64,000 nt of DNA from positions 32 through 64,031 of the forward strand of contig CAKOXI010000004.1 in NCBI GenBank assembly GCA_934130045.1, written 5' to 3'. Numbering within the stretch: position 1 is the first letter of the stretch; every line of letters starts with the position of its first letter. Below are positions 7,798 to 41,366 of the stretch, one piece after another. Both the position numbers and the translations under genes were made by a program. The notes beneath the pieces are model-generated. The model saw only the letters and a program-made list of their open reading frames with translations, made no database searches and had not been told where the DNA came from. Origin of the DNA: an uncultured Bacilli bacterium (lineage in GTDB: Bacteria; Bacillota_I; Bacilli_A; RF39; UBA660).

Positions 7798-8053
7798 ATT
7801 TGTTATAATTTTATCGTAATTTAAAAAATTGTGATATGTTTTAATAATTGAGTGATATTTGTATCAATCTTTATGAAAGCCGGAAAAAGTTGTAGATATT
7901 TATGTTTATTCCGTTATAGCTATAGAAATAAATATTTAGAATGTTCTGGGTATGAATAAGGAAGACTCAAAAAAACATTACAAGTACAATACCAGTAAAT
8001 TGGATCAATATACGCTGTTGATGGTGGTATGGGTGCAATATAAAAATGATGGC

Positions 8054-8479
8054 TTATTTGTCATCATTTTCTGTATTGATTAAATAACTAAAGTATTTTT
8101 TCTTTCCAGATAATACATCATTATAAAAATTTTGTTTCCAATTAACAAAATCAATTGATTTTTGTATTTCTTGCTTTTTTTGTTCTAATTCCCTTAGTTT
8201 AGCATTAAGAATTATTTTTCTTTCAGGAATTGTGGATTCACCCTTTAGGCAAAGTTCAAGATATTTTTTCATTTCTATAATACTCATACCACAATTTTTT
8301 AGACAAGTTAAACTTTTAATCCAATTGATGTCATTATCATTAAATACACGATAATTGCTCTTATTTCTTTTTACATTCGGAATAAGACCTTCGTTGCAAT
8401 AAAATTTAAGTGCATCATAAGTAAGTCCTGTTTTTTCACAAGTTTCTTTCATTGAATATAAAGTATCAGTTTCTATCAT
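8054..8479 (-). CDS. MerR family transcriptional regulator
   Basis: N-terminal MerR HTH (YSMKETCEKTGLTYDALKFYCNEGLI) followed by a coiled-coil dimerisation helix. Divergent from the aldo/keto reductase gene. Confidence 0.85.
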   Translation of the reverse strand: MIETDTLYSMKETCEKTGLTYDALKFYCNEGLIPNVKRNKSNYRVFNDNDINWIKSLTCLKNCGMSIIEMKKYLELCLKGESTIPERKIILNAKLRELEQKKQEIQKSIDFVNWKQNFYNDVLSGKKKYFSYLINTENDDK

Positions 8480-8620: not shown

Positions 8621-9511
8621 ATGGAATATGTTAAATTAAACAATGGTGTAGAAATGCCTATTTTAGGATTTGGAGTTTACCAAATACCAGCTAGTGAAAC
8701 AAAAAAATGTGTATTAGATGCGATTAAAGTTGGTTTTAGAAGTATTGATACAGCTCAAAGTTATTTTAATGAAGCAGAAGTTGGTGATGCAATAGCAGAG
8801 TGTGGAGTTGAAAGAAGTGAATTATTTATTACAACTAAAGTATGGATAGATAATTATGGATATGAAAGTTGTAAAAAATCAGTAATTGAATCACTTTCAA
8901 AATTAAAAACAGATTATATTGATTTAGTATTACTTCATCAACCTTTTGGTGATTATTATGGTGCTTATAAAGCTTTAGAAGAATTATATGAAGAAGGAAA
9001 AATTAGAGCAATTGGAGTTTCAAATTTTTATCCTGATAGATTAACAGATATTTGTCTTTTTGGTAGAAAAATTATTCCTAGTGTTAATCAAGTTGAAGTA
9101 AATCCTTTAAATGCGCAATTTTCATCTAAAGAAAATATGGAAAAATATGGTGTAAAAATGGAAGCTTGGGCACCATTTGGTGAAGGAAGAAATAATTTAT
9201 TTACTAATGAAGTATTAGTTAATATAGGAAAAAAATATAATAAAAGTGCTGCTCAAGTAATGCTTAGGTGGCTAATACAAAGAGGTGTTATTGTAGCTTG
9301 CAAATCTACACATATTGAGAGAATGGAAGAAAACTTTAATGTTTTTGATTTTAAATTATCTAATGGTGATATGGAAGAAATTAAAAAATTAAATCAAAAT
9401 AATAGCTTATTTTTTAATCATCAAGATCCTAAAATGGTAGAATGGTTTGATAATATTGTTAAGTCTAGAAGGGAAAATAAAGATTGTCGTAATGATAAGA
9501 AAAATTGGTAG
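8621..9511 (+). CDS. aldo/keto reductase
   Basis: Typical AKR start MEYVKLNNGVEMPILGFGVYQ, catalytic-region motifs DTAQSY and LLHQP, and NQVE. 296 aa. Confidence 0.9.
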   Translation: MEYVKLNNGVEMPILGFGVYQIPASETKKCVLDAIKVGFRSIDTAQSYFNEAEVGDAIAECGVERSELFITTKVWIDNYGYESCKKSVIESLSKLKTDYIDLVLLHQPFGDYYGAYKALEELYEEGKIRAIGVSNFYPDRLTDICLFGRKIIPSVNQVEVNPLNAQFSSKENMEKYGVKMEAWAPFGEGRNNLFTNEVLVNIGKKYNKSAAQVMLRWLIQRGVIVACKSTHIERMEENFNVFDFKLSNGDMEEIKKLNQNNSLFFNHQDPKMVEWFDNIVKSRRENKDCRNDKKNW

Positions 9512-9523
9512 GAGGATTTTAAT

Positions 9524-10162
9524 TTGAAAAAAATAATAATTGAAATAGTAATGATAATTTTAGTTTTAGTTACTATTATTGGTTTATTTTATATATTTAA
9601 TGGTTCAAATAATTCAGAAAATAAATTTAATGATAATAAACAAAATGATATAGATAACAATATAAATTTGGATGGTAAAAAAATTCTTGTGGTATATTAT
9701 TCGGCCCAAAATCATACTGAAAATATTGCTAAAAAAATCGCAAGTAAATTAAATGCAGATATTTTTGAAATAGAACCTGAAAATGTTTATACTTCTAGTG
9801 ATTTAAATTGGTCAGATAGTAATTCAAGGGTATCAAGAGAACATAATGATGAATCTTTAAGAAATGTTTCCTTAAAGACGACAAAAGTAGATGATTGGGA
9901 TAGTTATGATATAGTATTAATCGGTTATCCAATTTGGTGGGGAATAGCTGCTTGGCCCGTAAATACATTTGTTCAAAATAACGACTTTACTGGAAAAACT
10001 GTTATACCTTTTTGTACATCTGCTTCCTCTGGTATTGGGGAAAGTGGTGAATTATTAAAACGTGATGCCTTAGGTGGTGATTGGAAATCAGGCTATAGAT
10101 TTTCTTCAAATGCAACTGATAATGATATTGAAATATTTATAGATAGTATAAGTGAAAATTAA
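9524..10162 (+). CDS. flavodoxin-family protein with N-terminal membrane anchor
   Basis: TTG start after AGGAGG. A TM helix is followed by a flavodoxin-like core (ILVVYYSAQNHTENIAKKIA, GYPIWWG). Confidence 0.7.
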   Translation: MKKIIIEIVMIILVLVTIIGLFYIFNGSNNSENKFNDNKQNDIDNNINLDGKKILVVYYSAQNHTENIAKKIASKLNADIFEIEPENVYTSSDLNWSDSNSRVSREHNDESLRNVSLKTTKVDDWDSYDIVLIGYPIWWGIAAWPVNTFVQNNDFTGKTVIPFCTSASSGIGESGELLKRDALGGDWKSGYRFSSNATDNDIEIFIDSISEN

Positions 10163-10173
10163 TTTTAAAATGT

Positions 10174-10204
10174 AAAGCAAATTATAATTGATTTGCTTTT
10201 TTTA
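10174..10204 (+). terminator. rho-independent terminator
   Basis: AAAGCAAAT-tataattg-ATTTGCTTT hairpin plus T-run, 12 nt after the stop. Confidence 0.75.
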
Positions 10205-10339
10205 TGATATAATTTTAAGTAGTAATTAGAAGAAAAATATAAATAGTAACAATTATAAATAATTTAAACTAGAATAAAAAATATTAAATATAATTGAAAT
10301 GAAGAAATTATGATAGTGTATGAAAGGAAATGATTTAAA

Positions 10340-11254
10340 ATGAGAATATTAATTATTGGAGCTGGTGTACTAGGATCAAATCTAGCACATTCTATAAAAA
10401 AAGGTAATGATGTAACTATTTTAGCAAGAAATAAAGCCCATGAGAATTTAAAAAATAATGGACTTATTATAAAACATAAATTAGGAAAGAAAACAGTAGA
10501 TTATTTTAATGTAATAGAAAAGTTAGATGAGAATGATATTTATGATGTAATATTTATAGTTTCAAGATTTTCATCTTTAGATAGTATTGTTCCAATTATA
10601 GAAAATAATAAAAGCAAAAACATAGTATTTGTAGGTAATAATATGTCAGTAGAAAAATATATGAATATAAAAAATAAAAATGTATTATTCGCATTCTTTA
10701 TGGCTGCTGGCAAAAAGTGTGATGGGTATATAAATTCAATTTGTTTAAATAAAATTCAAATTGGAAGAGTGGATGGTAAAGACATAAGTAATGAATTTAT
10801 AAAATCTATATTTAAAGATACAAAAATAAAAGTAATTATAGAAAATAAGATGAATGATTATCTTAAAACACATGCATGTGCGGTTCTTCCACTTGTATTT
10901 GCAAGTTATAAAGTAAATGGTAATTTAAAGTTACTAAAAAAAGATAAGAAATATTCTCTACTAATTATGGATGCGATTATTGAAGGATATGATGTTTTAA
11001 AAAAACTAGGATATGAAATACTTCCTAAAGGTGAATATGAAAATTGTGTTAATAAAAAGAATCTATGTGCATTTATTTATAGATTTATGTTTTCTAATTT
11101 TATAGGAAAAATGTGTATATCAGATCATGCTATGAGTGCAAGAGAAGAGTTTTTAGTTATGAATAATGAATTTGAAAAATTAAAGGAAAAATCAAAACTT
11201 GAAACTAAAGTATATGATGAGTTAAAATTGGAGTTATTAAATTACAAAGATTAA
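10340..11254 (+). CDS. ketopantoate reductase (ApbA/PanE) family NAD(P)-oxidoreductase
   Basis: N-terminal Rossmann motif MRILIIGAGVLGS. The length and C-terminal helical domain are consistent with the family. Confidence 0.6.
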   Translation: MRILIIGAGVLGSNLAHSIKKGNDVTILARNKAHENLKNNGLIIKHKLGKKTVDYFNVIEKLDENDIYDVIFIVSRFSSLDSIVPIIENNKSKNIVFVGNNMSVEKYMNIKNKNVLFAFFMAAGKKCDGYINSICLNKIQIGRVDGKDISNEFIKSIFKDTKIKVIIENKMNDYLKTHACAVLPLVFASYKVNGNLKLLKKDKKYSLLIMDAIIEGYDVLKKLGYEILPKGEYENCVNKKNLCAFIYRFMFSNFIGKMCISDHAMSAREEFLVMNNEFEKLKEKSKLETKVYDELKLELLNYKD

Positions 11255-11296
11255 TTGAAAAAATATTAGTAATTATTCAAAAATAATAATATTTAA

Positions 11297-11336
11297 TGTA
11301 AGATTTATCAAATAATAATCGTTAATATATATGAGA
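11297..11336 (+). promoter_or_regulatory. ECF-type promoter, copy 1
   Basis: TGTAAGATTT, then N13, then CGTTAATATATATGAG. The outer motifs and the 17-nt gap between TGTAAG and CGT are the same as at 11825-11864. Confidence 0.55.
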
Positions 11337-11384
11337 GCCAATTTAAGTGTACTTATATATTATTGGTTGTTAGGAGGTAGAATA

Positions 11385-11750
11385 GTGAAGAAATCGATAA
11401 TTGTAATATTTGTTGCTGCAATTATTTTAACTGGTTGTAACATTTCAAAAAATAATAATAAATCAAAAACAGCGGAAATTGTTGTTGAAATTAATGGTGG
11501 TATTCCATACGATTGGGTATATACAATAAGTAATGAGAGTATTGTTAAATACAAAGATATGGAAGAAAAAACTTCGGATACTTTGGGTGGAAGCTATGAA
11601 CAGCATTATATTTTTGAAGGTTTAAAGGAAGGGGCAACAACAATCGAATTTGAACTAAAAAGCATTGTTGATAATACAGTAGATCAAACAAAAAATTATG
11701 AAGTTGTGGTTGATAAAAATTTAAATGTAACCATTACTGAAGTAAAATAA
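11385..11750 (+). CDS. lipoprotein, possibly chagasin-like (I42) peptidase inhibitor
   Basis: Start revised to the GTG at 11385 (AGGAGG RBS); the ORF-track ATG lies inside the promoter repeat. Lipobox LTGC. GGIPYDW and LGGSYEQHYIFEGLKEGATTIEFEL resemble chagasin loops. Confidence 0.5.
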   Translation: MKKSIIVIFVAAIILTGCNISKNNNKSKTAEIVVEINGGIPYDWVYTISNESIVKYKDMEEKTSDTLGGSYEQHYIFEGLKEGATTIEFELKSIVDNTVDQTKNYEVVVDKNLNVTITEVK

Positions 11751-11764
11751 TATAAAAACGTTTT

Positions 11765-11789
11765 GCAGATTTTTAATAATCTGCTTTTT
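11765..11789 (+). terminator. rho-independent terminator
   Basis: GCAGAT-ttttaata-ATCTGC hairpin followed by TTTTT. Confidence 0.65.
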
Positions 11790-11824
11790 CTATGATAAAA
11801 TATTTTTAGAAAAATAAAAAAGTT

Positions 11825-11864
11825 TGTAAGATTTTGTATGTATATATCGTTAATATATATGAGT
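11825..11864 (+). promoter_or_regulatory. ECF-type promoter, copy 2 (putative autoregulated sigma promoter)
   Basis: Same TGTAAGATTT...CGTTAATATATATGAG architecture as copy 1. CGT lies 37 nt upstream of the sigma-factor ATG. Confidence 0.55.
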
Positions 11865-11884
11865 ACACTAGTTAGGAGGCTTTC

Positions 11885-12442
11885 ATGGAAGATTTGGATA
11901 TAGTAAATCTTATCTATAATAGGAATGATTTGGGATTAGATGAATTAAGAAAAAAATATAATGAATTATTATATAGTTTAGCATTTTCTATATTAAATAA
12001 TAATAGTGATTCAGATGAGTGTGTAAATGATACTTATTTGAAAGTATGGAAAACAATTCCACCATATAAACCAACTTATTTAAAATCATTTGTTTGTAAG
12101 ATAACAAGGCAAATTTCTATTGATAGATATAGAATTAATAACAGAATTTTGAAAAAAGAAATGTCTTTGAATGAACTTGATTATGATATTTCTAGTAGTT
12201 ATAGTTTAGATGATGAGTTTTATAAAAATGAGCTTGTTAATTTTATTAATTTATTTTTGGAAAATTTGGATATTGAAACGCAAATATTATTTATTAGAAG
12301 ATATTTCTTAAATGAATCAGTTAAATCTTTATCAAAAAGATTTGATATAACAGAAACTAATATAAGTGTTAAATTATCTAGAGTAAGAAATAAACTAAAA
12401 AAATATTTAGAATTGGAGGGGTATAAAATTGAAAAAAATTAA
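11885..12442 (+). CDS. RNA polymerase ECF-type sigma-70 family factor
   Basis: 185 aa. Region 2 (ECVNDTYLKVW) and region 4 HTH (ESVKSLSKRFDITETNISVKLSRVRNKL). AGGAGG RBS. Confidence 0.85.
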   Translation: MEDLDIVNLIYNRNDLGLDELRKKYNELLYSLAFSILNNNSDSDECVNDTYLKVWKTIPPYKPTYLKSFVCKITRQISIDRYRINNRILKKEMSLNELDYDISSSYSLDDEFYKNELVNFINLFLENLDIETQILFIRRYFLNESVKSLSKRFDITETNISVKLSRVRNKLKKYLELEGYKIEKN

Positions 12443-13013
12443 TTTATTAGATATTTTTGGATTAACTGATAACGCAATGATAAATCGAGCTATTGAAACA
12501 GATAACATAGAAAAATTAAAAGAATTAAAAATATTAGAAAAAAGAAAAAAACATTTAAGTATATTTAGATATGTATCAATGTTAGCGGGGGGGCTTGCCG
12601 TTTTGGTGATAGGAATAGTTTTACTTAATAACAATATTAATGATGAAAATGTTTTAATACCTAATCCTATGACTGAAGTAAAAGATATAACTGAACTAGA
12701 AAATTATATTAAATTAGATTTATCAAAATATGAAATAAAAGAAATAATGGAAATGTATAAATTTGAAAATGAAAGTTTAATACAAATTAAATATATTGAT
12801 GGCTCAACTTTAAGAATAAGTAAAGAAAATGGTGATAATAGTGGTATATATGGTTCAACATTAGATAAAACTGAAACAATAAATGGAATTAATGTAAGTA
12901 TATATAAATTTGATAATACTGTTTATGCTGTTTGGAATGATAATAATTATGCCTTTAGTTATATATTTAGTGATAATGAAAATACTACTCAAATATTATC
13001 TAAATTGGTATAA
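12429..13013 (+). CDS. putative anti-sigma factor (single-pass membrane protein, DUF4367-like ectodomain)
   Basis: TTG start after GGAGGGG, with a 14-nt overlap with the sigma gene. One TM helix (VSMLAGGLAVLVIGIVLL). The position is typical of anti-sigma partners. Confidence 0.55.
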   Translation: MKKINLLDIFGLTDNAMINRAIETDNIEKLKELKILEKRKKHLSIFRYVSMLAGGLAVLVIGIVLLNNNINDENVLIPNPMTEVKDITELENYIKLDLSKYEIKEIMEMYKFENESLIQIKYIDGSTLRISKENGDNSGIYGSTLDKTETINGINVSIYKFDNTVYAVWNDNNYAFSYIFSDNENTTQILSKLV

Positions 13014-13031
13014 GGAGAATTAAAAAGTATT

Positions 13032-14432
13032 ATGAATTACGTAAATAGAAGTTTATTAAGTATAAAAAAGAGAAAGAATCGTTCTTTAATATTATTTGTA
13101 GCTGTACTTTTAATTTGTAATGTTATGGCTGGCGCTATTTCTGTTAAAAATGCTTTACTAAATACAGAGAAATCTTTTACTGACCTAATTCCAGTAGAAG
13201 TAAATATTGTAGATGATTATTCTTATTTTTTAGAAGATAGTGATAATACTTTATCAGAAGAAGTAGTAAAAAAAATTGGTAGTTCACCTTATGTAAAAAA
13301 TTATTACTATTATTATAAATATTGGCTTGGAAGTAACAAGTTAGAAAACGGAAGTGAACTTCCTATAGTAGGTGCAGAACAAGATAATGAATTTCATCCA
13401 TTTAATTCTTTTGATATATTAGGCGCATATAAGAGAACAGTTAAAGAACAGGATGATGGTAGTATAAAAATTACATCAGGAAAAACATTTACTGATGAAG
13501 ATATTAAAAATGGTAACAATGTGATACTTGTATCAGAACAAGTGGCAAGTAAAAACAAATTAAATGTTGGTGATAAAATTAAACTTGGTAGTCAAATAGA
13601 TATTTATAGTGTTAATTCACAAGTTGTTGAAGAGGAATACGAAATTATAGGTATTTTTGAAACAAAAACTGAATATGAAAAAGATATAACTGGAAACCTT
13701 ATTGAAATAGAAAGTAACTATGTAGATACAATTTATATGCCAAATGACGCAATAAAAAATATTCATGATAAAGTAATTACTGAAGTAAAGAAACAAGAAG
13801 TTGATAGTTATGATGCATTTTCTATAATAACAAACTATGAACTAAATAGTATTGATGAAATGGAAGAATTTAAAAGTGAAAACTTACCTAATTTACCTAA
13901 AGGATATGTATTTGAAGATAATTCGGAAAGTATTAGTAGTGTTATTGTTCCAATGAATAATATGAAGGATTTATCTAATATAATTGTTTATGCTTCTATA
14001 GTAGCTTCGATAATAATTATAGGATTGATTTCAATATTATTTTGTAAAGAAAGAAAAAAGGAAATGGGAATTTATCTTGCTCTTGGTGAAAAGAAAATAA
14101 ACATTGCTTTGCAATTATTAATAGAAACATTACTAGTATCAGTAATAGCAATAACAATATCTATATTTACTGGTAATATGATTGCCAAAAATGTATCAAA
14201 TAAAATGCTTCAAAATAAAATAGTAGAACAAAATGCTAAAATAGAAAATCAATATAATTATAATTCCTACGATTTAATAGATTGTGAAGAAATAATGGAT
14301 AATTATACTGTTTCATTAAATATTGGTACAATTTTAATGATTTATGCAGTTGCAATTATAAGTATTTCTTTATCTACAGTAATTCCAATATATTATACAC
14401 TTAAATTAAATCCAAGAAAGATACTTATGTAG
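13032..14432 (+). CDS. ABC transporter permease, FtsX/MacB-like
   Basis: N-terminal TM helix, a large extracytoplasmic domain of about 280 aa, then three C-terminal TM helices. This is the MacB/FtsX topology. Confidence 0.8.
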   Translation: MNYVNRSLLSIKKRKNRSLILFVAVLLICNVMAGAISVKNALLNTEKSFTDLIPVEVNIVDDYSYFLEDSDNTLSEEVVKKIGSSPYVKNYYYYYKYWLGSNKLENGSELPIVGAEQDNEFHPFNSFDILGAYKRTVKEQDDGSIKITSGKTFTDEDIKNGNNVILVSEQVASKNKLNVGDKIKLGSQIDIYSVNSQVVEEEYEIIGIFETKTEYEKDITGNLIEIESNYVDTIYMPNDAIKNIHDKVITEVKKQEVDSYDAFSIITNYELNSIDEMEEFKSENLPNLPKGYVFEDNSESISSVIVPMNNMKDLSNIIVYASIVASIIIIGLISILFCKERKKEMGIYLALGEKKINIALQLLIETLLVSVIAITISIFTGNMIAKNVSNKMLQNKIVEQNAKIENQYNYNSYDLIDCEEIMDNYTVSLNIGTILMIYAVAIISISLSTVIPIYYTLKLNPRKILM

Positions 14433-14441
14433 GAGGAATTT

Positions 14442-15125
14442 ATGAATAATGATTATATATTAACTGCGGATAAAATATGTTATTCTTATCAAGATGGTGA
14501 TGTAATAAGACATATACTTAAAGATGTCTCATTTAATTTTGAAAGAGGTAAATTTTACACTATTCTTGGAGAAAGTGGTTCAGGAAAAACAACATTTTTA
14601 TCACTCCTATCAGCACTTGAAGAACCTATTAGTGGAGTCATTAAATATGAAAATAAAGATATAAGAAATATAGGATTAGAAAAATACAGAAGAAATAAAA
14701 TAGGAATTATATTTCAAAATTATAACTTAATAAACTATATGACTGCTTTAGAAAATGTATATGTTGCAATGGGAATAACAGATAACAATATACCGGGTAA
14801 CATGAAGGTAATTGCAAGAAATTTGCTTAAATTTGTTGGTATAGATAAAGTTAAGGCAAATAGGCCAGTTAATAAATTATCTGGTGGGGAGCAACAAAGA
14901 GTTGCAATAGCTAGAAGTTTATCAACCGATGTTGACTTATTGTTTGCTGATGAACCAACTGGAAATTTAAATCAGGAAATGTCGGAAGAAATAGTAAAAA
15001 TTTTTAAAACATTAGCTCATCAACATAATAAATGTATTATTATGGTAACCCATTCAAAGGAAATAGCGGATAAATCTGATGAAGTTTTAATTTTGGAGAA
15101 AGGATTATTAAAGAAAAATGAGTAG
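14442..15125 (+). CDS. ABC transporter ATP-binding protein (MacB/LolD-like)
   Basis: Walker A GESGSGKTT, signature LSGGEQQRV, Walker B LLFADEPTGNL, H-loop VTHS. Confidence 0.9.
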   Translation: MNNDYILTADKICYSYQDGDVIRHILKDVSFNFERGKFYTILGESGSGKTTFLSLLSALEEPISGVIKYENKDIRNIGLEKYRRNKIGIIFQNYNLINYMTALENVYVAMGITDNNIPGNMKVIARNLLKFVGIDKVKANRPVNKLSGGEQQRVAIARSLSTDVDLLFADEPTGNLNQEMSEEIVKIFKTLAHQHNKCIIMVTHSKEIADKSDEVLILEKGLLKKNE

Positions 15126-16347
15126 TTTTTTAGAAAAATTTAACGAAGAAACAGATCAAGGTAAAGGTATTATTACAGAAGAAAATGATATAGAAGAAGA
15201 TACTTTATATTTAGATAAGCAGAAAAAGAAAAAATTAATTATTATTATTTTTAGTGTTATTATGATTATTGTTATTGCTATAATTGTTATACTTTCAAGA
15301 TTAGTGAATGTACCTGATTTTCAAAATGGTTTGAGTACTATTGCAACAAAATGGGCAAATAATAATGATATTGAAATTAAGGAAGAACAAAAATATGATA
15401 GTAAAGTATCAGAAGGAATGGTAATATCACAATCTATAAAATCAGGAACTAAGATATTTAAAGGAAATCAAATTACCATTGTTGTAAGTATTGGTAAAGA
15501 TCCAAATGAAAAAATAAAAGTACCCGATTTAAAAACAATGACAGCATCAGAAATTAAGATATGGAAAGAAGAAAATGAACTTTCAAATGTTACAATTAAA
15601 GAAGAATACTCCTCTACTATAGAATTTGGAAATATTATAAGTTATGAATTTGATAATATAGCTACAAATGAAAATAATTTCACAAGAAGTGATAAATTAA
15701 CTATTGTTGTATCAAAGGGTGCGAAAACACTAACTATGGAAGACTTTTCATCTAAAACAAAAGAAGATGTAGTTAAATGGTGCTCTGAAAATAAAGTTAA
15801 TTGTACTATAACCGAGCAATTTGATCAAAATGTTGTTTCAGGTCGTGTTATATCTCAATCTATAGCTAAAGGTACTAAACTAGAAGAAAATACTCAGATA
15901 ACATTTACAATTTCCATTGGAGAAGGAGTTACAGTACCTAATTATTATAATGTTTCTAGTGAAGATGCTACCGAATTAAATAGCAAAATAAAAATTAAAA
16001 TTAAAAATGTTTATAATATGGATGTTGGTTATGGAAATTTAATATCACAATCAGTTAGGGCAGGAGAAGTAATAAAAATAGATGAAAATGAGGTAACCTT
16101 AGTATATTCATTGGGAGTTCCATATTTTACAAGTTTAATTGGAATAAGTGAAAGTGAAATTGCAAAAATATTTTATGAATATAATCAAAAGGGTGTAAAT
16201 TTTACATATTCAATCAAATATGTTGATTCAGAAGAAGAAAAAGGGAAGATTGTGTGGTCATCAAAGTCCAATGAGTTTGTATCTATGAAGGAACATATTG
16301 AAATTAGTGTTAGTAATGGCTCAAAACAAAATTCTAATGAAAACTAA
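15118..16347 (+). CDS. membrane-anchored protein with about five PASTA-like repeats (no kinase or PBP domain)
   Basis: 8-nt overlap with the ATPase gene. One TM helix, then repeats of about 65-70 aa of the type VPDxxxxxxxxxxxWxxxNxxxxxxxxxYSxxVxxGxVISQSxxxGTxxxxxxxITxxxSxG. Confidence 0.7.
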   Translation: MSSFLEKFNEETDQGKGIITEENDIEEDTLYLDKQKKKKLIIIIFSVIMIIVIAIIVILSRLVNVPDFQNGLSTIATKWANNNDIEIKEEQKYDSKVSEGMVISQSIKSGTKIFKGNQITIVVSIGKDPNEKIKVPDLKTMTASEIKIWKEENELSNVTIKEEYSSTIEFGNIISYEFDNIATNENNFTRSDKLTIVVSKGAKTLTMEDFSSKTKEDVVKWCSENKVNCTITEQFDQNVVSGRVISQSIAKGTKLEENTQITFTISIGEGVTVPNYYNVSSEDATELNSKIKIKIKNVYNMDVGYGNLISQSVRAGEVIKIDENEVTLVYSLGVPYFTSLIGISESEIAKIFYEYNQKGVNFTYSIKYVDSEEEKGKIVWSSKSNEFVSMKEHIEISVSNGSKQNSNEN

Positions 16348-16463
16348 TTAAGTGAAAGTATAAAATTATAAAAGAGCAGCTAATATTATGAAAAAAGTAT
16401 TAGAAATGTGTAAAAAATAAAATTTATCTTTTAATTATAAATATTATTGTGGAGGTAAAAAAT

Positions 16464-16961
16464 ATGATATTGTTACTAGAATGTATTGGTTTGTGTTTAA
16501 TTTTTTATATGCTGATTATAATATCATATAAAAAAAATCCCTTGTCAGGAGTTCATAATTTACCTATAGAAATACAAAAAAGAGTTCAAGAATTACCAGA
16601 GTATAATGATATAAAACCCAAAAGTATTTTATCTACAAGAAAAAGAATAATAAAAAAAATTCCAGCATTAATAGTGTTGCTAGTAATTTTTGCAATTCTT
16701 GTTTATTTAGCAGGAGCAAGAAATTTTATAGAAGGTTTTACATATTCTTTTATAATATGGTTTACTATAAAACTATTTGTAGTATTTGTAATAGATATTT
16801 TATGGTATTCTAATTCACCAAATTATTGGATAAAAGGTACAGAAGACTTGGAAAGTGAATATAAAAATTATAAATTTTATATAAGTAGTATACCAAGAAG
16901 TTTAATAGCGGGATTTATTGTATCAATAATTATTGGAATAATTATAAGTATAATTGGTTAA
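16464..16961 (+). CDS. integral membrane protein
   Basis: Start revised to the ATG at 16464 (GGAGG RBS). Four hydrophobic helices. Confidence 0.55.
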   Translation: MILLLECIGLCLIFYMLIIISYKKNPLSGVHNLPIEIQKRVQELPEYNDIKPKSILSTRKRIIKKIPALIVLLVIFAILVYLAGARNFIEGFTYSFIIWFTIKLFVVFVIDILWYSNSPNYWIKGTEDLESEYKNYKFYISSIPRSLIAGFIVSIIIGIIISIIG

Positions 16962-16985
16962 TTTAAAATTAAAATAAGCATAAAA

Positions 16986-17015
16986 AGTAGATAAATAAAA
17001 TTATTTACTTTTTTA
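16986..17015 (+). terminator. rho-independent terminator
   Basis: AGTAGATAA...TTATTTACT hairpin (one G-U pair) plus TTTTTT. Confidence 0.55.
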
Positions 17016-17059
17016 TGTTATAATTTAATAAACATATTTAATTAAGGTTGTGATGTTTA

Positions 17060-17713
17060 GTGAAAAAGAAACCATTATCAATTTTGTTAATTATTTTAAT
17101 ATTAATTATAATATTTATTGTTTATGAATTATATGTATTTAATTACATTGAACATAAAAAATATACAAATGATTATTTCAATATAAAAAGTTATGTAAGT
17201 AATGTTGATTTAGATGGTGATTTAATAGATGATCAAACAGATATTTTACAAAATGCGAGAAAATATATAGCAACTAATCCTAAATATAAAAGTAAATATT
17301 ATGACACAGGATATCCTAATGATGGGTATGGAGTTTGTACAGATGTTGTTGCATTTAGCCTTAAAGGTGCTGGATATGATTTAATGAATTTAGTCAATGA
17401 AGATATTAAAAATCATAGAGAGCTATATAATGTTGATATAATAGATAAAAATATAGATTTTAGAAGAGTTAAAAATTTAAAAATATATTTTGATAATAAT
17501 GCAAAACAATTAACAACTGATATACAAAAAATTGAAGATTGGCAGGGTGGAGATATTGTGATTTTTAAAAATCATATAGGAATAGTTTCTGATAAAAGAA
17601 ATAAAAAAGGAATACCATTTATAATACATCACGCAAGTAAATATCAAAAATATTATGAAGAAGATATTTTAGAGTATAGAAAAGATATTGTTGGTCATTA
17701 CCGAATAAGTTAA
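17060..17713 (+). CDS. DUF1287 family protein (membrane anchored)
   Basis: GTG start. A TM anchor is followed by YDTGYPNDGYGVCTDVV, FRRVKNL and GDIVIF, which are characteristic of DUF1287 as I recall it. Confidence 0.6.
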   Translation: MKKKPLSILLIILILIIIFIVYELYVFNYIEHKKYTNDYFNIKSYVSNVDLDGDLIDDQTDILQNARKYIATNPKYKSKYYDTGYPNDGYGVCTDVVAFSLKGAGYDLMNLVNEDIKNHRELYNVDIIDKNIDFRRVKNLKIYFDNNAKQLTTDIQKIEDWQGGDIVIFKNHIGIVSDKRNKKGIPFIIHHASKYQKYYEEDILEYRKDIVGHYRIS

Positions 17714-17743
17714 ATGTAGCGATACTTTTTAAGGAGAAAAAAA

Positions 17744-18073
17744 ATGAAAAAGAAAATTTTAACTATTTTAATATTTGGAGTTATTTTTTTAGGAATAACA
17801 GGTTGTGGCAAAGAAAAAATGACTGATATTTATGAATTAAATATTATTAATGATAAAATAATAGAATATTTTGAAAAAAATGGTTCAGTCAAATATGATA
17901 ATTATAGTTATAATTATGTTGATGAAGAAAATGGTTTCATAATAGTAGGACTGTTTGATAATAGTAAGGAACAACAAGAATGGTTTAAGAAAAATATAGT
18001 AAATTCAAAGTATATAAAGTTTGAACAAGCAAAACTTCTTATAAATAATGAGGTTGATGTAAGTGAAAAATAA
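17744..18073 (+). CDS. small lipoprotein
   Basis: AAGGAG RBS. Signal peptide with lipobox ITGC. Confidence 0.6.
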   Translation: MKKKILTILIFGVIFLGITGCGKEKMTDIYELNIINDKIIEYFEKNGSVKYDNYSYNYVDEENGFIIVGLFDNSKEQQEWFKKNIVNSKYIKFEQAKLLINNEVDVSEK

Positions 18074-18093
18074 ATAATATAGCGAGGTGTACA

Positions 18094-18303
18094 GTGAGTA
18101 AATATGATTCATTATGGAAATATATAAAAGAAAAACAAAAAGATAATTATGAATTAACATATGAAGAAATTTATAATATTTTAGGATTTGAAATAGATCA
18201 TTCATTTCTAACTTATAAAAAAGAACTGTTAGAATACGGATATGAAGTTAAAAAAATATCTATGAGAGAAAAGAAAATAGTTTTTAGTAAATATAATTTG
18301 TAG
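18094..18303 (+). CDS. small hypothetical protein
   Basis: 69 aa. GTG start after GAGGTG. Charged, soluble composition. Confidence 0.45.
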   Translation: MSKYDSLWKYIKEKQKDNYELTYEEIYNILGFEIDHSFLTYKKELLEYGYEVKKISMREKKIVFSKYNL

Positions 18304-18316
18304 AGGAAGTGCTGTA

Positions 18317-18652
18317 ATGAACGAATATATAAATTTAATTTTAGAAAATATTGATGATGAACATATATGGTGCGCAATAGATGATAAAAAACATCAAGCA
18401 GGAGTTGATAGAAAAAAAGAATGGATAAAAAGTAAGTTTAAAGATGGTCATGTGTTTAGAAAATTAAATACTAAAGACAAGATATTTATTGTTTGTGGGT
18501 AGCAGTAAGTTTTAAAGAAAAAAATTTGGAAAAGAATTATTAGAGAAAGCTAAAAATACTACGTATTCAACAATTGGGTAAATTTCTACAATGGTGAGTT
18601 TATATCTAATACCATATTAAATTCAAATTCACTTGAAAAATTAATTAAATAA
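18317..18652 (+). pseudogene. decayed GNAT/YoaP-like acetyltransferase gene
   Basis: The N-terminal 61 aa (ENIDDEHIWCAIDDKKHQAGVDRKKEWIKSKFKDGHVFRKLNTKDKIFI) match the start of YoaP-like acetyltransferases and then hit a stop. Out-of-frame pieces follow (FGKELLEKAKN, then FYNGEFISNTILNSNSLEKLIK). The total is far shorter than an intact gene. Confidence 0.6.
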
Positions 18653-37650: not shown

Positions 37651-39396
37651 ATGAGAGAATATGAAAATACAAATTTAAAAATTTATGATTATATGAAAAA
37701 AGATAATGAATTATTTAAAAATAGTAAGGCACTTACTTACTATGGGAGGCAAATAGTTTATAATGAATTTTTGGATGCCATTGAAAAAGTAGCAGTTTCA
37801 TTTAAAATGCTTGGTGTTGAAAAGGGTGATTATGTACCTATATGTTTACCAAATATTCCACAAGGTGTAATATCTTTTTATGCTTTAAATAAAATAGGCG
37901 CAATACCAAATATGATACCTGTACTTGCAAGTGAAGAGGAATTTAAACATTATCTATCAGAAGTCCCTGCAAAAAATTTTATAATGTTTAGAGATTTTTA
38001 TTCTAAAGTTAAGAATGTTATTCCTAAAACATCAATTCAAAGAACTATTATTGCTTCTCCAACAACATATATTCCAACTGAAGCTATAAAACAAATGGCT
38101 AGTATGAAAGCTATAGCTAGTTCTTGTTATTTTGACGCTCAAACAAAATTTTCTTTTAGAAATAAATTAATGTCTTGGGATAAATTTATGAAATTATCAA
38201 ATGGCGAGATGTATATTCCAACAGAAAGTTTTAATTTTAATGATACCGCATTATTATCTCATACAGGTGGAACAACCGGTGTTCCAAAATCAGCTGAATT
38301 TACAAATGAAAATTTTAATGCTATGGTCGAACAATATCGTACATTAACAAATCTGTTTGAAAGAGGAGATAAGATTTTAACGGTGCTTCCGATGTTTATA
38401 AATTATGGATTATGTAATAATATTCATATGCCATTAAGTTTTGGAATTGAAACGATTATTGTTCCAACTTTTGATCCGAAGGAAGCATTTGATTTGTTTT
38501 TTAAATATAAACCAAATCATTTTATGTGTGTTGCTCATTATTTTGAATATATGATGAATGATGAAAGGTTCAATGGAATGAATTTATCATTTGTTAAAAC
38601 TATTACTTATGGTGGGGCACCTTTGAGTCCAAAATCAAAAAAAATGTTTGATGATTTTTTGGATAGTCATGGCGCAATTGGTGTTAAAATTTTAAATGGA
38701 TATGGTATGACTGAAAGTACATCAAGTGTTGCATATGAACAAAAGGCCACTAATTCTGACGATTATAAATTGTTTGAATTACCATATAGTAATATAAAAA
38801 TAGTTAATCCTGAAACTAAAATTGAAGTTAAAACAGGTGAAGTTGGTGAATTATGTGCGGAAGGACCTGTAATTTTTAAAGGATATTTGAACAATGAAGC
38901 TGAAACTAAAAATGTTTTAAAAGTACATAGTGATGGTAAAATTTGGTTACACTCTGGGGATTTAGCACGAATGAATGATGATAGATCTATAGATATAGTT
39001 GGAAGATTAAAAAGAATTTATCCAACAATGGATATAACAAATGGAAATGTTGCCAAAATTTTTCCAGATAATATTGAAAATGTCATTAAAACATGTGAAT
39101 GTGTTAAGGAATGTGCAATAGATTGTAAACCAAATAAGGAAAGAGTAAATGTTCCATTCGCTTTTATAGTTTTAAAGAGTGGATATTCTAGGGAAGAATC
39201 TTTAGAAATGATAAAAGAAAAATGTTTAGAGTTGAATGTATATTCTAGACCTTACAATTTTATTTTTTTAAATGAATTAAATAAAACAGCAGGAGGAAAA
39301 GTAGATTATAAAGCAATTATAAAAATGATACCAGATAATTATACTAATTCAATAGAGGAAATTATCTATGTTAAAAATAATAGAAAGGTAAGATAG
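37651..39396 (+). CDS. AMP-dependent synthetase/ligase (acyl-CoA synthetase-like adenylate-forming enzyme)
   Basis: AMP-binding motif LSHTGGTTGVPK, GYGMTE, and a GDLARMNDDRSIDIVGRLK hinge. AGGAGG RBS. Confidence 0.85.
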   Translation: MREYENTNLKIYDYMKKDNELFKNSKALTYYGRQIVYNEFLDAIEKVAVSFKMLGVEKGDYVPICLPNIPQGVISFYALNKIGAIPNMIPVLASEEEFKHYLSEVPAKNFIMFRDFYSKVKNVIPKTSIQRTIIASPTTYIPTEAIKQMASMKAIASSCYFDAQTKFSFRNKLMSWDKFMKLSNGEMYIPTESFNFNDTALLSHTGGTTGVPKSAEFTNENFNAMVEQYRTLTNLFERGDKILTVLPMFINYGLCNNIHMPLSFGIETIIVPTFDPKEAFDLFFKYKPNHFMCVAHYFEYMMNDERFNGMNLSFVKTITYGGAPLSPKSKKMFDDFLDSHGAIGVKILNGYGMTESTSSVAYEQKATNSDDYKLFELPYSNIKIVNPETKIEVKTGEVGELCAEGPVIFKGYLNNEAETKNVLKVHSDGKIWLHSGDLARMNDDRSIDIVGRLKRIYPTMDITNGNVAKIFPDNIENVIKTCECVKECAIDCKPNKERVNVPFAFIVLKSGYSREESLEMIKEKCLELNVYSRPYNFIFLNELNKTAGGKVDYKAIIKMIPDNYTNSIEEIIYVKNNRKVR

Positions 39397-39398
39397 AT

Positions 39399-41366
39399 AT
39401 GAATGGAAGTTTTTTTTGTCAATTAATAAGTTTGGTATATATGATTTCAATATTTATTTTATTTATTTCTAAAAAGAAAATAGATTCAATTGAAAACAAA
39501 TTATTTAAAATAATAATAGTTGCTAATATTCTAGGATTGGTTGTTGAAATTACATGTTTTTTATTAGGTTATTATAATATTGAAAATATTATATTATGCC
39601 AAACTATGGTTAAGTTATACCTAATTTATCTTGTATCTTTTGTAATGATATTTACGGTATATTTACTTTATATTTCTTCAAAGACAAAAAATATAAAGAA
39701 TGGTCAAAAAAATTTAAATATTATCTACTATGTTTTTAGTGTTTTATTATTAATATTTTTGCCAATTAATTTAGTTAATAAAAATGGAACTATTTATGCT
39801 AATGGTTTAGCTGTAAATGCTTCATATATTTTAATAACTGTATATATTGTTATATGGTATGTTGTATTGTTAAAAAATTTTAAAACGTTAAAACATAAAA
39901 AATATTTACCACTTTTTATGTTTCTAATAATTGGAACTATAGTTATGATTATTCAAAAATTACATCCAGAGTTATTGTTGATGACTTCTATGGAATCATT
40001 TATTGTGTTTTTAATGTATCACACAATAGAAAACCCAGATATGAAAATGTTAAATGAAATGACATTAGCTCGTAATCAAGCAGAAAAAGCAAATAGAGCA
40101 AAAAGTGATTTTTTAAGCAGTATGAGTCATGAAATAAGAACACCACTTAATGCTATAGTAGGATTATCAGAAGATATAGTAACATATAAAGACAAAGTAC
40201 CAAAAGAAGTAGTAGAAGATTCAGAAGATATATTAAATGCATCACATACATTACTAGAAATAGTAGGTAATATTCTAGATATAAATAAGATAGAATCAGA
40301 TAAAATGGAAATAGTAGAAAGTCCATATAATTTTAAAGAGACATTAATAAATATGTGTAGAGTAACAACAACACGTATAGGAGAAAAACCAATAGATTTT
40401 AAATTAAATATAGCGGAAGATATACCATATGAACTTATAGGAGATAAAGTACACGTAAAAGAAATAATAAATAATATTTTAACGAATGCGATAAAATATA
40501 CTGAAAAAGGAGAAATAAGTTTAACAGTAAAATGTGTAAATGATTTAGAAAAAAATAAAACAAATTTAATAATAAGTTGTAAAGATACTGGGCGTGGAAT
40601 AAAAGCAGAAAATATAAGTAAATTATTTACAAAATTTGAAAGATTAGATATAGAAAAAAATACAACAACAGAAGGAACAGGATTAGGACTAGCTATAACA
40701 AAATCATTAGTAGATATGATGGGAGGAACAATTAATGTTCAAAGTCAATTTGGAACAGGATCAATATTTGTAATTAACCTACCACAAAAAATAAGCAAAA
40801 TATCTTCTCCACTTAGTGAAGAAGAATTAATGAACACAGCTTCTTCTTTATATCAGAATAAAATAGATAATATTAAGTTAGAAAAACAAGAACAAAATTA
40901 TGGACATAAAAAAATATTAATAGTAGATGACAATAAATTAAATATAAAAGTAGCAAAAAGAGCATTACAAGATTTTGATTTTGAAATAGATGAAGCAATA
41001 GATGGAATAGACTGTTTAGAAAAAAATAAAACAAAAAAATATGATTTAATATTAATGGATATAATGATGCCAAATATGAGTGGAGAAACAGCATTATTAA
41101 AATTAAAAGAAAATATTAATTTCAAAACTCCAGTAATAGCTTTAACAGCCGATGCAGTAACAGGCGCAAAAGAAAAATATATAAGTGAAGGATTTGTAGA
41201 TTATATAGCAAAACCATTTAATAGAGAACAAATAAAAATAAAATTAGATAAACTATTTAAAAAAAATAATGAATCATTATTTAGTAATGAAATACCAAAA
41301 GAATTATTAGATATGAGTAAACTACCAAGTGAAATAGATTTAAGTTCATTAACTGAAAATAAATAA
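39399..41366 (+). CDS. hybrid sensor histidine kinase/response regulator with polytopic N-terminal sensor domain
   Basis: Six to seven TM helices. H-box SHEIRTPLN. N, G1 and G2 boxes (NAIKYT, DTGRGI, GTGLGLAI). C-terminal REC domain (ILIVDDNKLN...DLILMDIMMP...ALTADA...KP). Confidence 0.9.
   Translation: MNGSFFCQLISLVYMISIFILFISKKKIDSIENKLFKIIIVANILGLVVEITCFLLGYYNIENIILCQTMVKLYLIYLVSFVMIFTVYLLYISSKTKNIKNGQKNLNIIYYVFSVLLLIFLPINLVNKNGTIYANGLAVNASYILITVYIVIWYVVLLKNFKTLKHKKYLPLFMFLIIGTIVMIIQKLHPELLLMTSMESFIVFLMYHTIENPDMKMLNEMTLARNQAEKANRAKSDFLSSMSHEIRTPLNAIVGLSEDIVTYKDKVPKEVVEDSEDILNASHTLLEIVGNILDINKIESDKMEIVESPYNFKETLINMCRVTTTRIGEKPIDFKLNIAEDIPYELIGDKVHVKEIINNILTNAIKYTEKGEISLTVKCVNDLEKNKTNLIISCKDTGRGIKAENISKLFTKFERLDIEKNTTTEGTGLGLAITKSLVDMMGGTINVQSQFGTGSIFVINLPQKISKISSPLSEEELMNTASSLYQNKIDNIKLEKQEQNYGHKKILIVDDNKLNIKVAKRALQDFDFEIDEAIDGIDCLEKNKTKKYDLILMDIMMPNMSGETALLKLKENINFKTPVIALTADAVTGAKEKYISEGFVDYIAKPFNREQIKIKLDKLFKKNNESLFSNEIPKELLDMSKLPSEIDLSSLTENK

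Follow-up and report, generated by a model that had tools for sequence, protein, structure and literature searches.

ATP-binding cassette (ABC) transporters of type VII, such as MacB, FtsEX, LolCDE, and BceAB, pass ATP-driven movement to an outer domain and act outside the membrane. PASTA domains serve Ser/Thr kinases and penicillin-binding protein (PBP) 2x-type enzymes as ectodomains that sense the wall; there they bind muropeptides or lipid II and localize to sites of wall synthesis; we know of no role for kinase-less PASTA proteins. Here we describe a locus that brings the two together, located in a 64-kb window from an uncultured Bacilli bacterium (contig CAKOXI010000004.1; the window is the whole stretch of DNA analyzed, 64,000 nucleotides). 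In the region 11297-16347 (positions are those of the window, and all genes of interest lie on the plus strand), genes for a MacB/FtsX-type permease, an ABC ATPase, and a PASTA-only membrane protein follow one another behind genes for a sigma factor of the extracytoplasmic function (ECF) type and a candidate anti-sigma factor. The permease-ATPase-PASTA trio is widespread and apparently unstudied, and a full-text search of the literature found no description of PASTA paired with ABC, MacB, FtsX, or mechanotransmission. The trio is kept while its regulator differs by lineage, and therefore the conserved unit is the trio itself.

In outline, the PASTA protein resembles the PASTA kinases (PrkC, PknB, StkP, Stk1, and IreK) and the PBP2x transpeptidases, which likewise have a single transmembrane (TM) segment followed by tandem extracellular PASTA repeats; unlike them, it lacks a catalytic domain, has a cytoplasmic part whose only conserved feature is the N-terminal FLxxF motif, and possesses a family-specific fifth domain. 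Profile searches against Pfam and NCBIfam bore out the domain identities given in a preliminary description of this locus, as well as its statement that a kinase or transpeptidase domain is missing: the whole protein matched PF03793 (E, 1.4e-35; 121.5 bits) with PASTA as its only domain, no match to Pkinase, Transpeptidase, or PBP_dimer was found in it, and only 37 aa precede the TM segment. The Stk1/PknB-family kinase model NF033483 scored 151 bits against a cutoff of 450, aligning only over its C-terminal half (model positions 327 to 563). The same description had counted about five PASTA-like repeats. Taken singly, repeats 1 to 4 scored 40.9, 27.9, 49.5, and 30.1 bits against a Pfam gathering score of 23.2, whereas the fifth domain gave no Pfam match at E ≤ 10 and no significant BLAST similarity to repeats 1 to 4, and is PASTA-like by predicted fold only. 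In an AF2 model based on 12 family members (mean predicted local distance difference test score [pLDDT], 83.6), a TM helix at residues 30 to 60 is followed by five strand-helix-three-strand units. Foldseek gave the Staphylococcus aureus PrkC ectodomain as the best match (3py9; E, 4.6e-14), together with 2kui (E, 8e-11) and PASTA domains of PBP2x (E, about 1e-6 to 1e-4); PASTA domains of PknB, like those of PBP2x, come after the PrkC ectodomain among the best PDB matches. No other part of the protein is as well conserved as the fifth domain, which has the densest run of invariant columns in family alignments A1 and A3. We conclude that the protein consists of four bona fide PASTA repeats and one PASTA-like domain, without an enzymatic domain.

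The N terminus of the family carries the motif M-S-[DS]-F-L-x-x-[FY] (window copy, 15118-15141). A form of it, F[LF]xx[FIL], occurs within the first 25 residues in 185 of 203 family members, most commonly as MSDFLSKF. Between this motif and the TM segment lies a variable low-complexity linker of 11 to 235 aa (family median, 91 aa before the TM segment), and a juxtamembrane EHxVxxDxxYxKRK-like motif was found by pattern in 46 of the 203 members.

The other two proteins of the trio are of the MacB/type VII kind, represented by MacAB-TolC and, in Gram-positive bacteria, by YknXYZ and Spr0693-0695. The permease matched both FtsX (PF02687; E, 8e-13; 48.9 bits versus 25.5) and MacB_PCD (PF12704; E, 6e-9; 36.9 bits versus 27), and the hydrophobic stretches read from its translation (residues ~19-39, 318-338, 362-385, and 433-455) give four predicted TM segments and a large outer domain in the TM1-TM2 loop. 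The nearest solved structure is MacB, with sequence similarity confined to the TM region (E, 1e-5). The ATPase is encoded separately, is LolD/MacB-like, and has intact motifs in its translation (Walker A, GESGSGKTT; signature, LSGGEQQR; Walker B with the catalytic Glu, LLFADEPT; H-loop, VTHS), and the mechanism is presumably mechanotransmission. Unlike MacAB, however, the trio in the window lacks a MacA/HlyD-type adaptor gene, its third component being the PASTA-repeat protein; no HlyD-type or biotin-lipoyl-like adaptor was found among the window genes from 11331 to 17713 or in the relatives' neighborhoods examined.

FtsEX, with its partners EnvC, PcsB, CwlO/SweCD, and RipC, is also a type VII ABC transporter and acts on the wall via a dedicated extracytoplasmic partner. 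However, the outer domain of the trio permease is about twice the size of that of FtsX, the FtsX and FtsE models scored far below their cutoffs (NF038346, 20.2 versus 250 bits; TIGR02673, 164.9 versus 264.85 bits), and the partner, a membrane-anchored protein built from PASTA repeats, is encoded within the operon by a gene whose start overlaps the preceding stop. The models for LolCDE- and Lcn972-type systems were likewise below cutoff (TIGR02212, 15.2 versus 362 bits; TIGR02211, 175 versus 308 bits; TIGR03608, 186 versus 255 bits), although the Lcn972-type bacteriocin exporter and LolD were the best models for the ATPase. BceAB-BceRS resembles the locus in that an FtsX-family transporter stands under a dedicated envelope stress regulator, and both plausibly act on intermediates of the lipid II cycle. 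Bce-like permease/ATPase pairs with small two-component systems in fact lie beside the trio in Oceanobacillus and Streptococcus. The window permease nevertheless has 4 predicted TM segments, 466 aa, and a single FtsX domain, against 10 TM segments and ~650 aa in Bce permeases; the regulator here is a sigma/anti-sigma-candidate pair without a histidine kinase; and BceAB recognizes its target through its own ectodomain, without a PASTA partner. As judged from sequence comparison, then, the trio is set apart from FtsEX, LolCDE, the Lcn972-exporter group, MacAB, Bce modules, and the PASTA kinases and PBPs.

The preliminary description left it to be checked whether the adjacency of the PASTA gene and the transporter genes is fortuitous. 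An exhaustive search of cluster representatives (50% identity) with the PASTA protein gave 4318 matches at E ≤ 1e-3 and 371 at E ≤ 1e-30. Most of the top matches were 410 to 530 aa long with one full-length match (query residues ~20-402), i.e., the same architecture of one TM segment plus five domains. Every one of the 120 matches listed in the profile search has PF03793, and none has a kinase or transpeptidase domain; P0286 is listed with PF05795 as well. Named members come from Enterococcus, Vagococcus, Streptococcus, Lactococcus, Oceanobacillus, Evansella, Sutcliffiella, Culicoidibacter, Erysipelotrichaceae, Oscillospiraceae, and Coriobacteriia. Of the 14 distant contexts examined, 12 show an FtsX-family permease gene (490 to 530 aa), an ABC ATPase gene (224 to 240 aa), and the PASTA gene in that order; they come from Enterococcus innesii, Oceanobacillus, Oscillospiraceae, Coriobacteriia, Streptococcus, Evansella, Lactococcus paracarnosus, Culicoidibacter, and four metagenome contigs. 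A metagenome scan with a narrower alignment (A4) gave 5 loci. The adjacency holds down to 33 to 40% identity of the PASTA proteins, across Bacillota and into Coriobacteriia, and the start/stop overlap ATGAGTGA is retained in Enterococcus, Oceanobacillus, Coriobacteriia, Streptococcus, and L023 (L017, L018, L020, L021, and L023). The distant ATPases are 61 to 64% identical to that of the window and the permeases 28 to 31%. With a family hidden Markov model (HMM), the ATPases of the distant trios scored 390 to 430 bits against 150 to 190 bits for other MacB-type ATPases in the same loci, so the trio ATPases form, by this measure, a clade distinct from those. Since the trio recurs in the clade loci described below and in 12 of the 14 distant contexts, the arrangement is not due to chance, and gene order together with sequence similarity identifies it as an orthologous, co-inherited unit across Bacillota and Coriobacteriia.

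The most distant of the 14 contexts (L022, 3213-7752) differs in its transporter. Here a 583-aa PASTA-only protein (P0376; N terminus, METKNTFLDTY) is encoded directly after an ABC ATPase and an ABC-2-type permease (ABC2_membrane_2/DUF2705), and therefore PASTA-only proteins may partner with more than one class of ABC transporter. As side observations on the family, a Coriobacteriia contig (L020, 2170-3684) and a metagenome contig (L027, 1416-2860) have a second family permease gene, whole or fragmentary, immediately before the trio, which could be a LolC/LolE-like heterodimer partner or a decaying duplicate. Besides, several matches (P0121, P0124, P0133, P0138, P0145, P0153, P0155, P0160, P0169, P0179, and P0234) are giant proteins of 1,900 to 3,300 aa with 8 to 27 PASTA-like stretches, each matched separately; several of these proteins start with a signal-peptide-like sequence and not with the FLxxF motif.

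No ECF sigma factor gene was adjacent to the trio at the 14 distant loci examined. What accompanies the trio varies: an OmpR-type two-component system lies directly upstream of it in Culicoidibacter; Oceanobacillus has such a system within 3 kb on the downstream side, in the company of more FtsX-family transporter pairs; at the Streptococcus locus, a TetR-type gene lies 0.6 kb downstream in divergent orientation; the Oscillospiraceae locus has a separate, oppositely oriented sigma gene ~5 kb away; and no regulator adjoins the trio in the Enterococcus, Coriobacteriia, Evansella, and Lactococcus contexts. At L018, L021, and L030, the trio is flanked by other FtsX-family permease/ATPase pairs and OmpR-type two-component systems.

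Closer to the window, more than 120 clusters of close PASTA homologues (61 to 99% identical) are all PASTA-only and come from uncultured low-GC gut metagenome-assembled genomes labeled Bacilli, "Tenericutes," or Clostridia. We surveyed this clade by tblastn of the window proteins against 16 loci (L001 to L016). The trio was present in L001, L003 to L011, and L013 to L015, with identities as low as 51% for the PASTA protein and 48% for the permease, and had decayed in L002, L012, and L016; in L016, a C-terminal PASTA fragment only (8001-8342) lies beside an orthologue of the window gene at 10340-11254. The full set of six genes, i.e., the trio, the sigma and anti-sigma-candidate genes, and an upstream gene for a chagasin-type lipoprotein, was found in the window and in L001, L003, L006, L008, L009, L010, and L015. 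Elsewhere the regulator has changed. Immediately upstream of the trio, L013 has a divergent ECF sigma gene and a gene for a membrane protein of 244 aa. In L014, an ECF sigma factor with regions 2 and 4 and a C-terminal tail with two hydrophobic segments (9229-9993) overlaps the end of the PASTA gene, so that the sigma factor appears to be membrane tethered and is encoded downstream of the trio instead of upstream; this trio is flanked by three FemAB-family genes and a Polysacc_synt/MurJ-like (MurJ/Wzx-type) flippase gene. L004, L005, and L007 have lost the sigma gene and most of the anti-sigma gene, of whose open reading frame (ORF) only codons for the C terminus are left; their place is taken by a perfect TTGACA-N17-TATAAT promoter, flanked by two CTGAAATCGGT direct repeats, together with a divergent XRE-type helix-turn-helix gene. 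The last ~30 anti-sigma codons survive just before the permease ribosome-binding site (L004, 5560-5914; L007, 1026-1381), which looks like a clean natural regulator swap.

The ECF wiring is thus lineage-specific, the sigma/anti-sigma pair being confined to this gut clade. This runs counter to the view, taken in the preliminary description, that an ECF/PASTA circuit is the essence of the system, since sister lineages have exchanged it for a sigma-A promoter and an XRE gene; the claimed tie between the PASTA gene and a MacB/FtsX-type transporter, on the other hand, extends well beyond the clade. The locus lies in a plastic region: an IS110-like transposase gene follows the trio in L007 (5018-6223), genes for a PemK-like toxin and a serine recombinase come after it in L013 (11225-13469), and the flanking genes differ between most loci.

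The features of the region are listed in Table 1. All six genes were found on the plus strand in the order and at the coordinates first described. The sigma, anti-sigma-candidate, permease, ATPase, and PASTA genes form a five-gene operon, each with its own Shine-Dalgarno sequence and with gaps or overlaps of no more than 18 nt, and the lipoprotein gene is a separate unit. Direct reading of the junctions gave a 14-nt overlap between the sigma and anti-sigma-candidate genes, gaps of 18 and 9 nt at the next two junctions, and the 8-nt overlap of the PASTA ATG and the ATPase stop that had been reported (ATGAGTAG, 15118-15125), a feature often kept in relatives. The first three PASTA codons therefore also encode the end of the ATPase in an overlapping frame.

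Table 1. Genes and sequence features of the locus, in window coordinates
Feature	Position	Strand	Details
ECF-type promoter-like site, TGTAAG-N17-CGTTAA	11297..11325	+	~60 nt upstream of lipoprotein gene
Chagasin-family (I42) lipoprotein gene	11385..11750	+	Likely start GTG 11385 behind AGGAGG (ORF from 11331); lipobox LTGC
Terminator-like hairpin and T-run	11765..11784	+	7-bp stem with 3 GC pairs, then TTTTTCT; divides lipoprotein gene from sigma operon
Second ECF-type promoter-like site, TGTAAG-N17-CGTTAA	11825..11853	+	32 nt upstream of sigma gene; presumed autoregulated operon promoter
ECF (group 4) sigma-70 factor, 185 aa	11885..12442	+	TIGR02937, E 9e-22, 77.5 bits versus 42.9
Anti-sigma candidate, 194 aa	12429..13013	+	TTG start overlaps sigma gene by 14 nt; ORF and ribosome-binding site
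Type VII (MacB/FtsX-family) ABC permease, 466 aa	13032..14432	+	TM1, outer domain (~residues 40-315), TM2-4
ABC ATPase, 227 aa	14442..15125	+	ABC_tran, E 1e-33, 117 bits
PASTA-only membrane protein, 409 aa	15118..16347	+	MSSFLEKF N terminus, 37-aa cytoplasmic tail, one TM segment, five extracellular repeats
PASTA repeats 1 to 4 (aa 64-334)	15307..16119	+	Each alone passes the Pfam gathering score
Fifth, C-terminal domain (aa 335-403)	16120..16326	+	PASTA-like in predicted topology, not in sequence

The window has a G+C content of ~23% and carries genes for prolyl- and glutamyl-tRNA synthetases (ProRS and GluRS) and IF-2, which marks it as chromosomal DNA. An HMM of the repeats matched no window ORF of at least 60 aa other than the 409-aa PASTA protein, none of the 28 ORFs, from among the largest, that were scanned with Pfam is a kinase or PBP, no two-component genes were present between 11 and 18 kb, and an Rfam scan of 10000-18500 (E ≤ 1) gave no matches. 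Farther along the window, an MBOAT-family O-acyltransferase gene is followed by a gene for a DHHW-motif protein (32808-35259), a putative pair for cell envelope modification, and a 655-aa hybrid histidine kinase (HisKA, HATPase_c, and receiver; 39399-41366) is encoded after an AMP-binding enzyme gene (37651-39396).

ECF control of ABC transporters has precedents. The sigY-yxlCDEFG operon of Bacillus subtilis is an ECF sigma operon that includes an ABC transporter. In the ECF reclassification, the only such precedent found was a Firmicutes group (ECF258) that is linked to ABC transporters and whose anti-sigma factors carry DUF4179 (PMC7826278). The window operon resembles these ECF258/sigY-type systems in combining a presumed autoregulated ECF sigma factor, a membrane anti-sigma candidate, and an ABC transporter behind a CGT-containing -10 element; unlike in ECF258, DUF4179 was not detected in the anti-sigma candidates of the window family. 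The sigma factor itself also matched Sigma70_r2 (E, 3e-9; 36.8 bits versus 24), with Sigma70_r4_2 at 23 bits, just below its threshold of 25.7.

The 194-aa protein encoded after the sigma factor is a candidate anti-sigma factor by virtue of its position, gene overlap, single TM segment, and co-conservation. It has an N-terminal cytoplasmic part of ~45 aa, one TM segment, and a folded ectodomain of ~115 aa. No match was found in Pfam, NCBIfam, or PDB sequences, including the anti-sigma domains zf-HC2, RskA, and class II, and its family of 78 clusters, all from the window's clade, includes none with a name or a Pfam domain. DUF4367, for which a profile check had been proposed, was absent, as was DUF4179, from the Pfam matches of seven orthologues at E ≤ 5. 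Confidence in the AF2 model is low for the first 45 residues, and residues 80 to 194 have pLDDT values above 90 except for one 10-residue block (84) and are arranged as a strand, a helix, seven strands, and a helix. Foldseek with this model returned nothing significant; the best matches, TP0453 (E, 0.018) and LolA (E, 0.19), amount to a faint resemblance to an open-sheet lipid-binding fold.

Two promoter-like sites link the sigma operon to the lipoprotein gene. The motif TGTAAGATTT-N13-ATCGTTAATATATATGAG stands upstream of the lipoprotein gene and again upstream of the sigma gene. Its core, TGTAAG-N17-CGTTAA, was matched exactly twice in the 64 kb, on the plus strand at these two sites, against 0.25 matches expected by chance. 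At both sites, the -35 and -10 elements are conserved and the spacer sequence is variable in the 7 related six-gene loci (8 with the window); the spacer is 16 nt in L001 and L003, giving the overall pattern TGTAAG-N16/17-CGTTA. A CGT-containing -10 element at such a spacing is typical of ECF-dependent promoters (sigma-W, -M, and -X type), although the -35 element reads TGTAAG here versus the usual ..AAC. Because a conserved promoter-like site precedes the sigma gene and the genes are tightly packed, we infer an autoregulated ECF operon whose regulon would also cover the chagasin-type lipoprotein; for this lineage, ECF control as first proposed is well in keeping with the data. A scan for sigma-70 promoters was uninformative at 23% GC (85 sites versus 83 expected).

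The lipoprotein gene had been counted as part of the module. It appears to share the ECF-type promoter and adjoins the sigma gene in all 8 full-module loci, but it forms a unit of its own, closed by a terminator-like hairpin. The two elements of the hairpin that were compared are the stem sequence AATCTGC and the T-run; in most relatives both are also kept immediately upstream of the sigma gene. The protein matched Pfam Inhibitor_I42 (PF09394; E, 1.6e-8; 35.1 bits versus a gathering score of 27.2) over model positions 4 to 90 of 91, and the start at GTG 11385 gives it a signal peptide with the lipobox, as read from the sequence. By eye, the NPTTG-like and GxGG-like chagasin loops seem partly kept (NGGIPYDW and LGGS), and an RPW-like third loop was not seen. 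A hairpin in the 5' untranslated region of the chagasin gene was considered as a conserved element and dropped, its consensus energy being -1.17 kcal/mol, with no covariation and no counterpart in L001.

The reading that we favor, though we hold it as evenly balanced between right and wrong, is that of an envelope-stress-induced type VII ABC machine whose PASTA protein directs it to lipid II or nascent peptidoglycan. In it, 13032-16347 would encode a three-protein envelope machine consisting of the permease, the separate ATPase, and a single-pass PASTA rod of four repeats and the fifth PASTA-like domain. Envelope stress would be sensed by the ectodomain of the anti-sigma candidate and release the sigma factor, which would then induce its own operon and the protease inhibitor lipoprotein. 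The PASTA protein, made in step with the ATPase, would assemble with the transporter as a stoichiometric accessory subunit, and the rod may bind lipid II or un-cross-linked peptidoglycan and so position the transporter, or gate it, where the wall is being made. There, the outer domain of the permease, moved at the expense of ATP, might do work by mechanotransmission, as in MacB, FtsEX, and BceAB. The likeliest job of such a machine would be to remove or neutralize wall-targeting antimicrobials. Protection of this kind is suggested by the stress regulators in several lineages, the Bce-like neighbors, and the FemAB and flippase neighbors, and it is the weakest step of the proposal. Since the regulator is interchangeable (ECF, two-component system, XRE, or none), the trio is probably an effector and not a sensor.

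Several points weigh against this proposal. The physical association of the three proteins is read from gene linkage, and binding of PASTA repeats to lipid II or muropeptides is carried over from studies of kinases and PBP2x. The anti-sigma role is assigned by position, no anti-sigma domain having been detected, and the antimicrobial resistance role is a guess from context; near most of the distant loci there is neither a stress regulator nor a resistance gene. Besides, in L024, another of the 14 distant contexts, the ATPase and PASTA genes are present but the permease gene is missing. We had considered the N-terminal FLxxF motif as a sign of docking on this ATPase, but the ABC-2-linked relative, with FLDTY, also has FLxx[FY], and the motif is therefore not specific evidence for such docking.

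The main rival, which we think unlikely but take seriously, is an FtsEX-like regulator of wall remodeling, in which the ABC transporter moves the PASTA rod or a partner bound to it and thereby switches a peptidoglycan hydrolase or synthase at the nascent wall, following the precedent of EnvC, PcsB, CwlO, and RipC. The permease belongs to the type VII family, as FtsEX does; the trio stands constitutively, without an adjacent regulator, in most of the distant taxa; FemAB and flippase genes adjoin it in L014; and the membrane-distal fifth domain is the most conserved, as would be expected of a module that docks on a protein or on the wall. However, a gene for a hydrolase or coiled-coil activator is linked to the trio at no locus examined. 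The permease ectodomain (~275 aa) with its MacB_PCD match is of MacB/LolC size and not of FtsX size, the FtsX and FtsE scores given above are low, and control by ECF factors and two-component systems in several lineages suits a stress response better.

Less probable still is that the transporter and PASTA protein together sense wall precursors, or complexes of these with a drug, and relay this to the anti-sigma factor, in the way that BceAB hands its transport activity on to BceS; the locus would then be an ECF-wired Bce-like module. Three ECF arrangements occur beside the trio in the clade (the upstream pair, the divergent genes of L013, and the downstream TM-tailed factor of L014), which suggests a repeated functional link, and the anti-sigma candidate, with its very short cytoplasmic part and one TM segment, could contact the permease. 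Against this, the candidate has a well-folded, conserved ectodomain of its own, a more obvious sensor; the distant trios have no adjacent ECF factor, and close relatives have lost the sigma factor and kept the trio; and co-regulation alone explains the linkage. For the earlier suggestion that the PASTA repeats sense on behalf of the sigma factor, we found no supporting sign. We regard as similarly doubtful the stronger form of this idea, that PASTA is the subunit of a new type VII ABC class that reads lipid II or nascent peptidoglycan and that the activity of the machine signals to the ECF anti-sigma factor. If true, it would mean Bce-like "flux sensing" through a sigma factor instead of a histidine kinase, and kinase-less PASTA proteins would be general targeting or gating subunits of ABC transporters (FtsX-type and, in at least one relative, ABC-2-type).

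Slightly more doubtful again is a dedicated exporter or extractor with one particular cargo (for instance, a peptide, a lipoprotein, or a molecule linked to a lipid), in which the PASTA rod is only a wall-spanning adaptor or anchor and stands in for the MacA/HlyD-type protein that YknXYZ and other MacB systems of Gram-positive bacteria have. The N-terminal TM segment, extended ectodomain, and operon position do match those of membrane fusion adaptors; no HlyD-type gene is present; and the best ATPase models, although below their cutoffs, are those of an exporter and LolD. A conserved cargo gene, however, lies beside the trio at no locus examined, and to our knowledge PASTA domains do not form conduits. 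Finally, it is highly improbable that the adjacency is fortuitous or that the PASTA gene is what is left of a decayed gene for a PASTA kinase or PBP: the portion with the TM segment and PASTA repeats does align to the C-terminal half of the Stk1-family model, but the synteny and start/stop overlap are conserved across phyla with intact ORFs, the N-terminal motif and fifth domain are conserved and family-specific, and 0 of the 120 listed matches has a kinase or transpeptidase domain.

Taken together, a large family of PASTA-only proteins is encoded almost always by the third, translationally coupled gene of a distinct and highly conserved MacB/FtsX-type ABC transporter. This suggests that mechanotransmission ABC systems have a new kind of accessory subunit and that the mechanical work they do with ATP is connected with lipid II or nascent peptidoglycan. 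Orthologues occur in cultivable Enterococcus, Streptococcus, Lactococcus, Oceanobacillus, and Evansella, and the idea is therefore directly testable, while in the gut clade the ECF regulon is compact, its promoter has a clear footprint, and the regulator swap amounts to a natural experiment. The trio may bear on intrinsic resistance to wall-active antimicrobials, gut commensals included.

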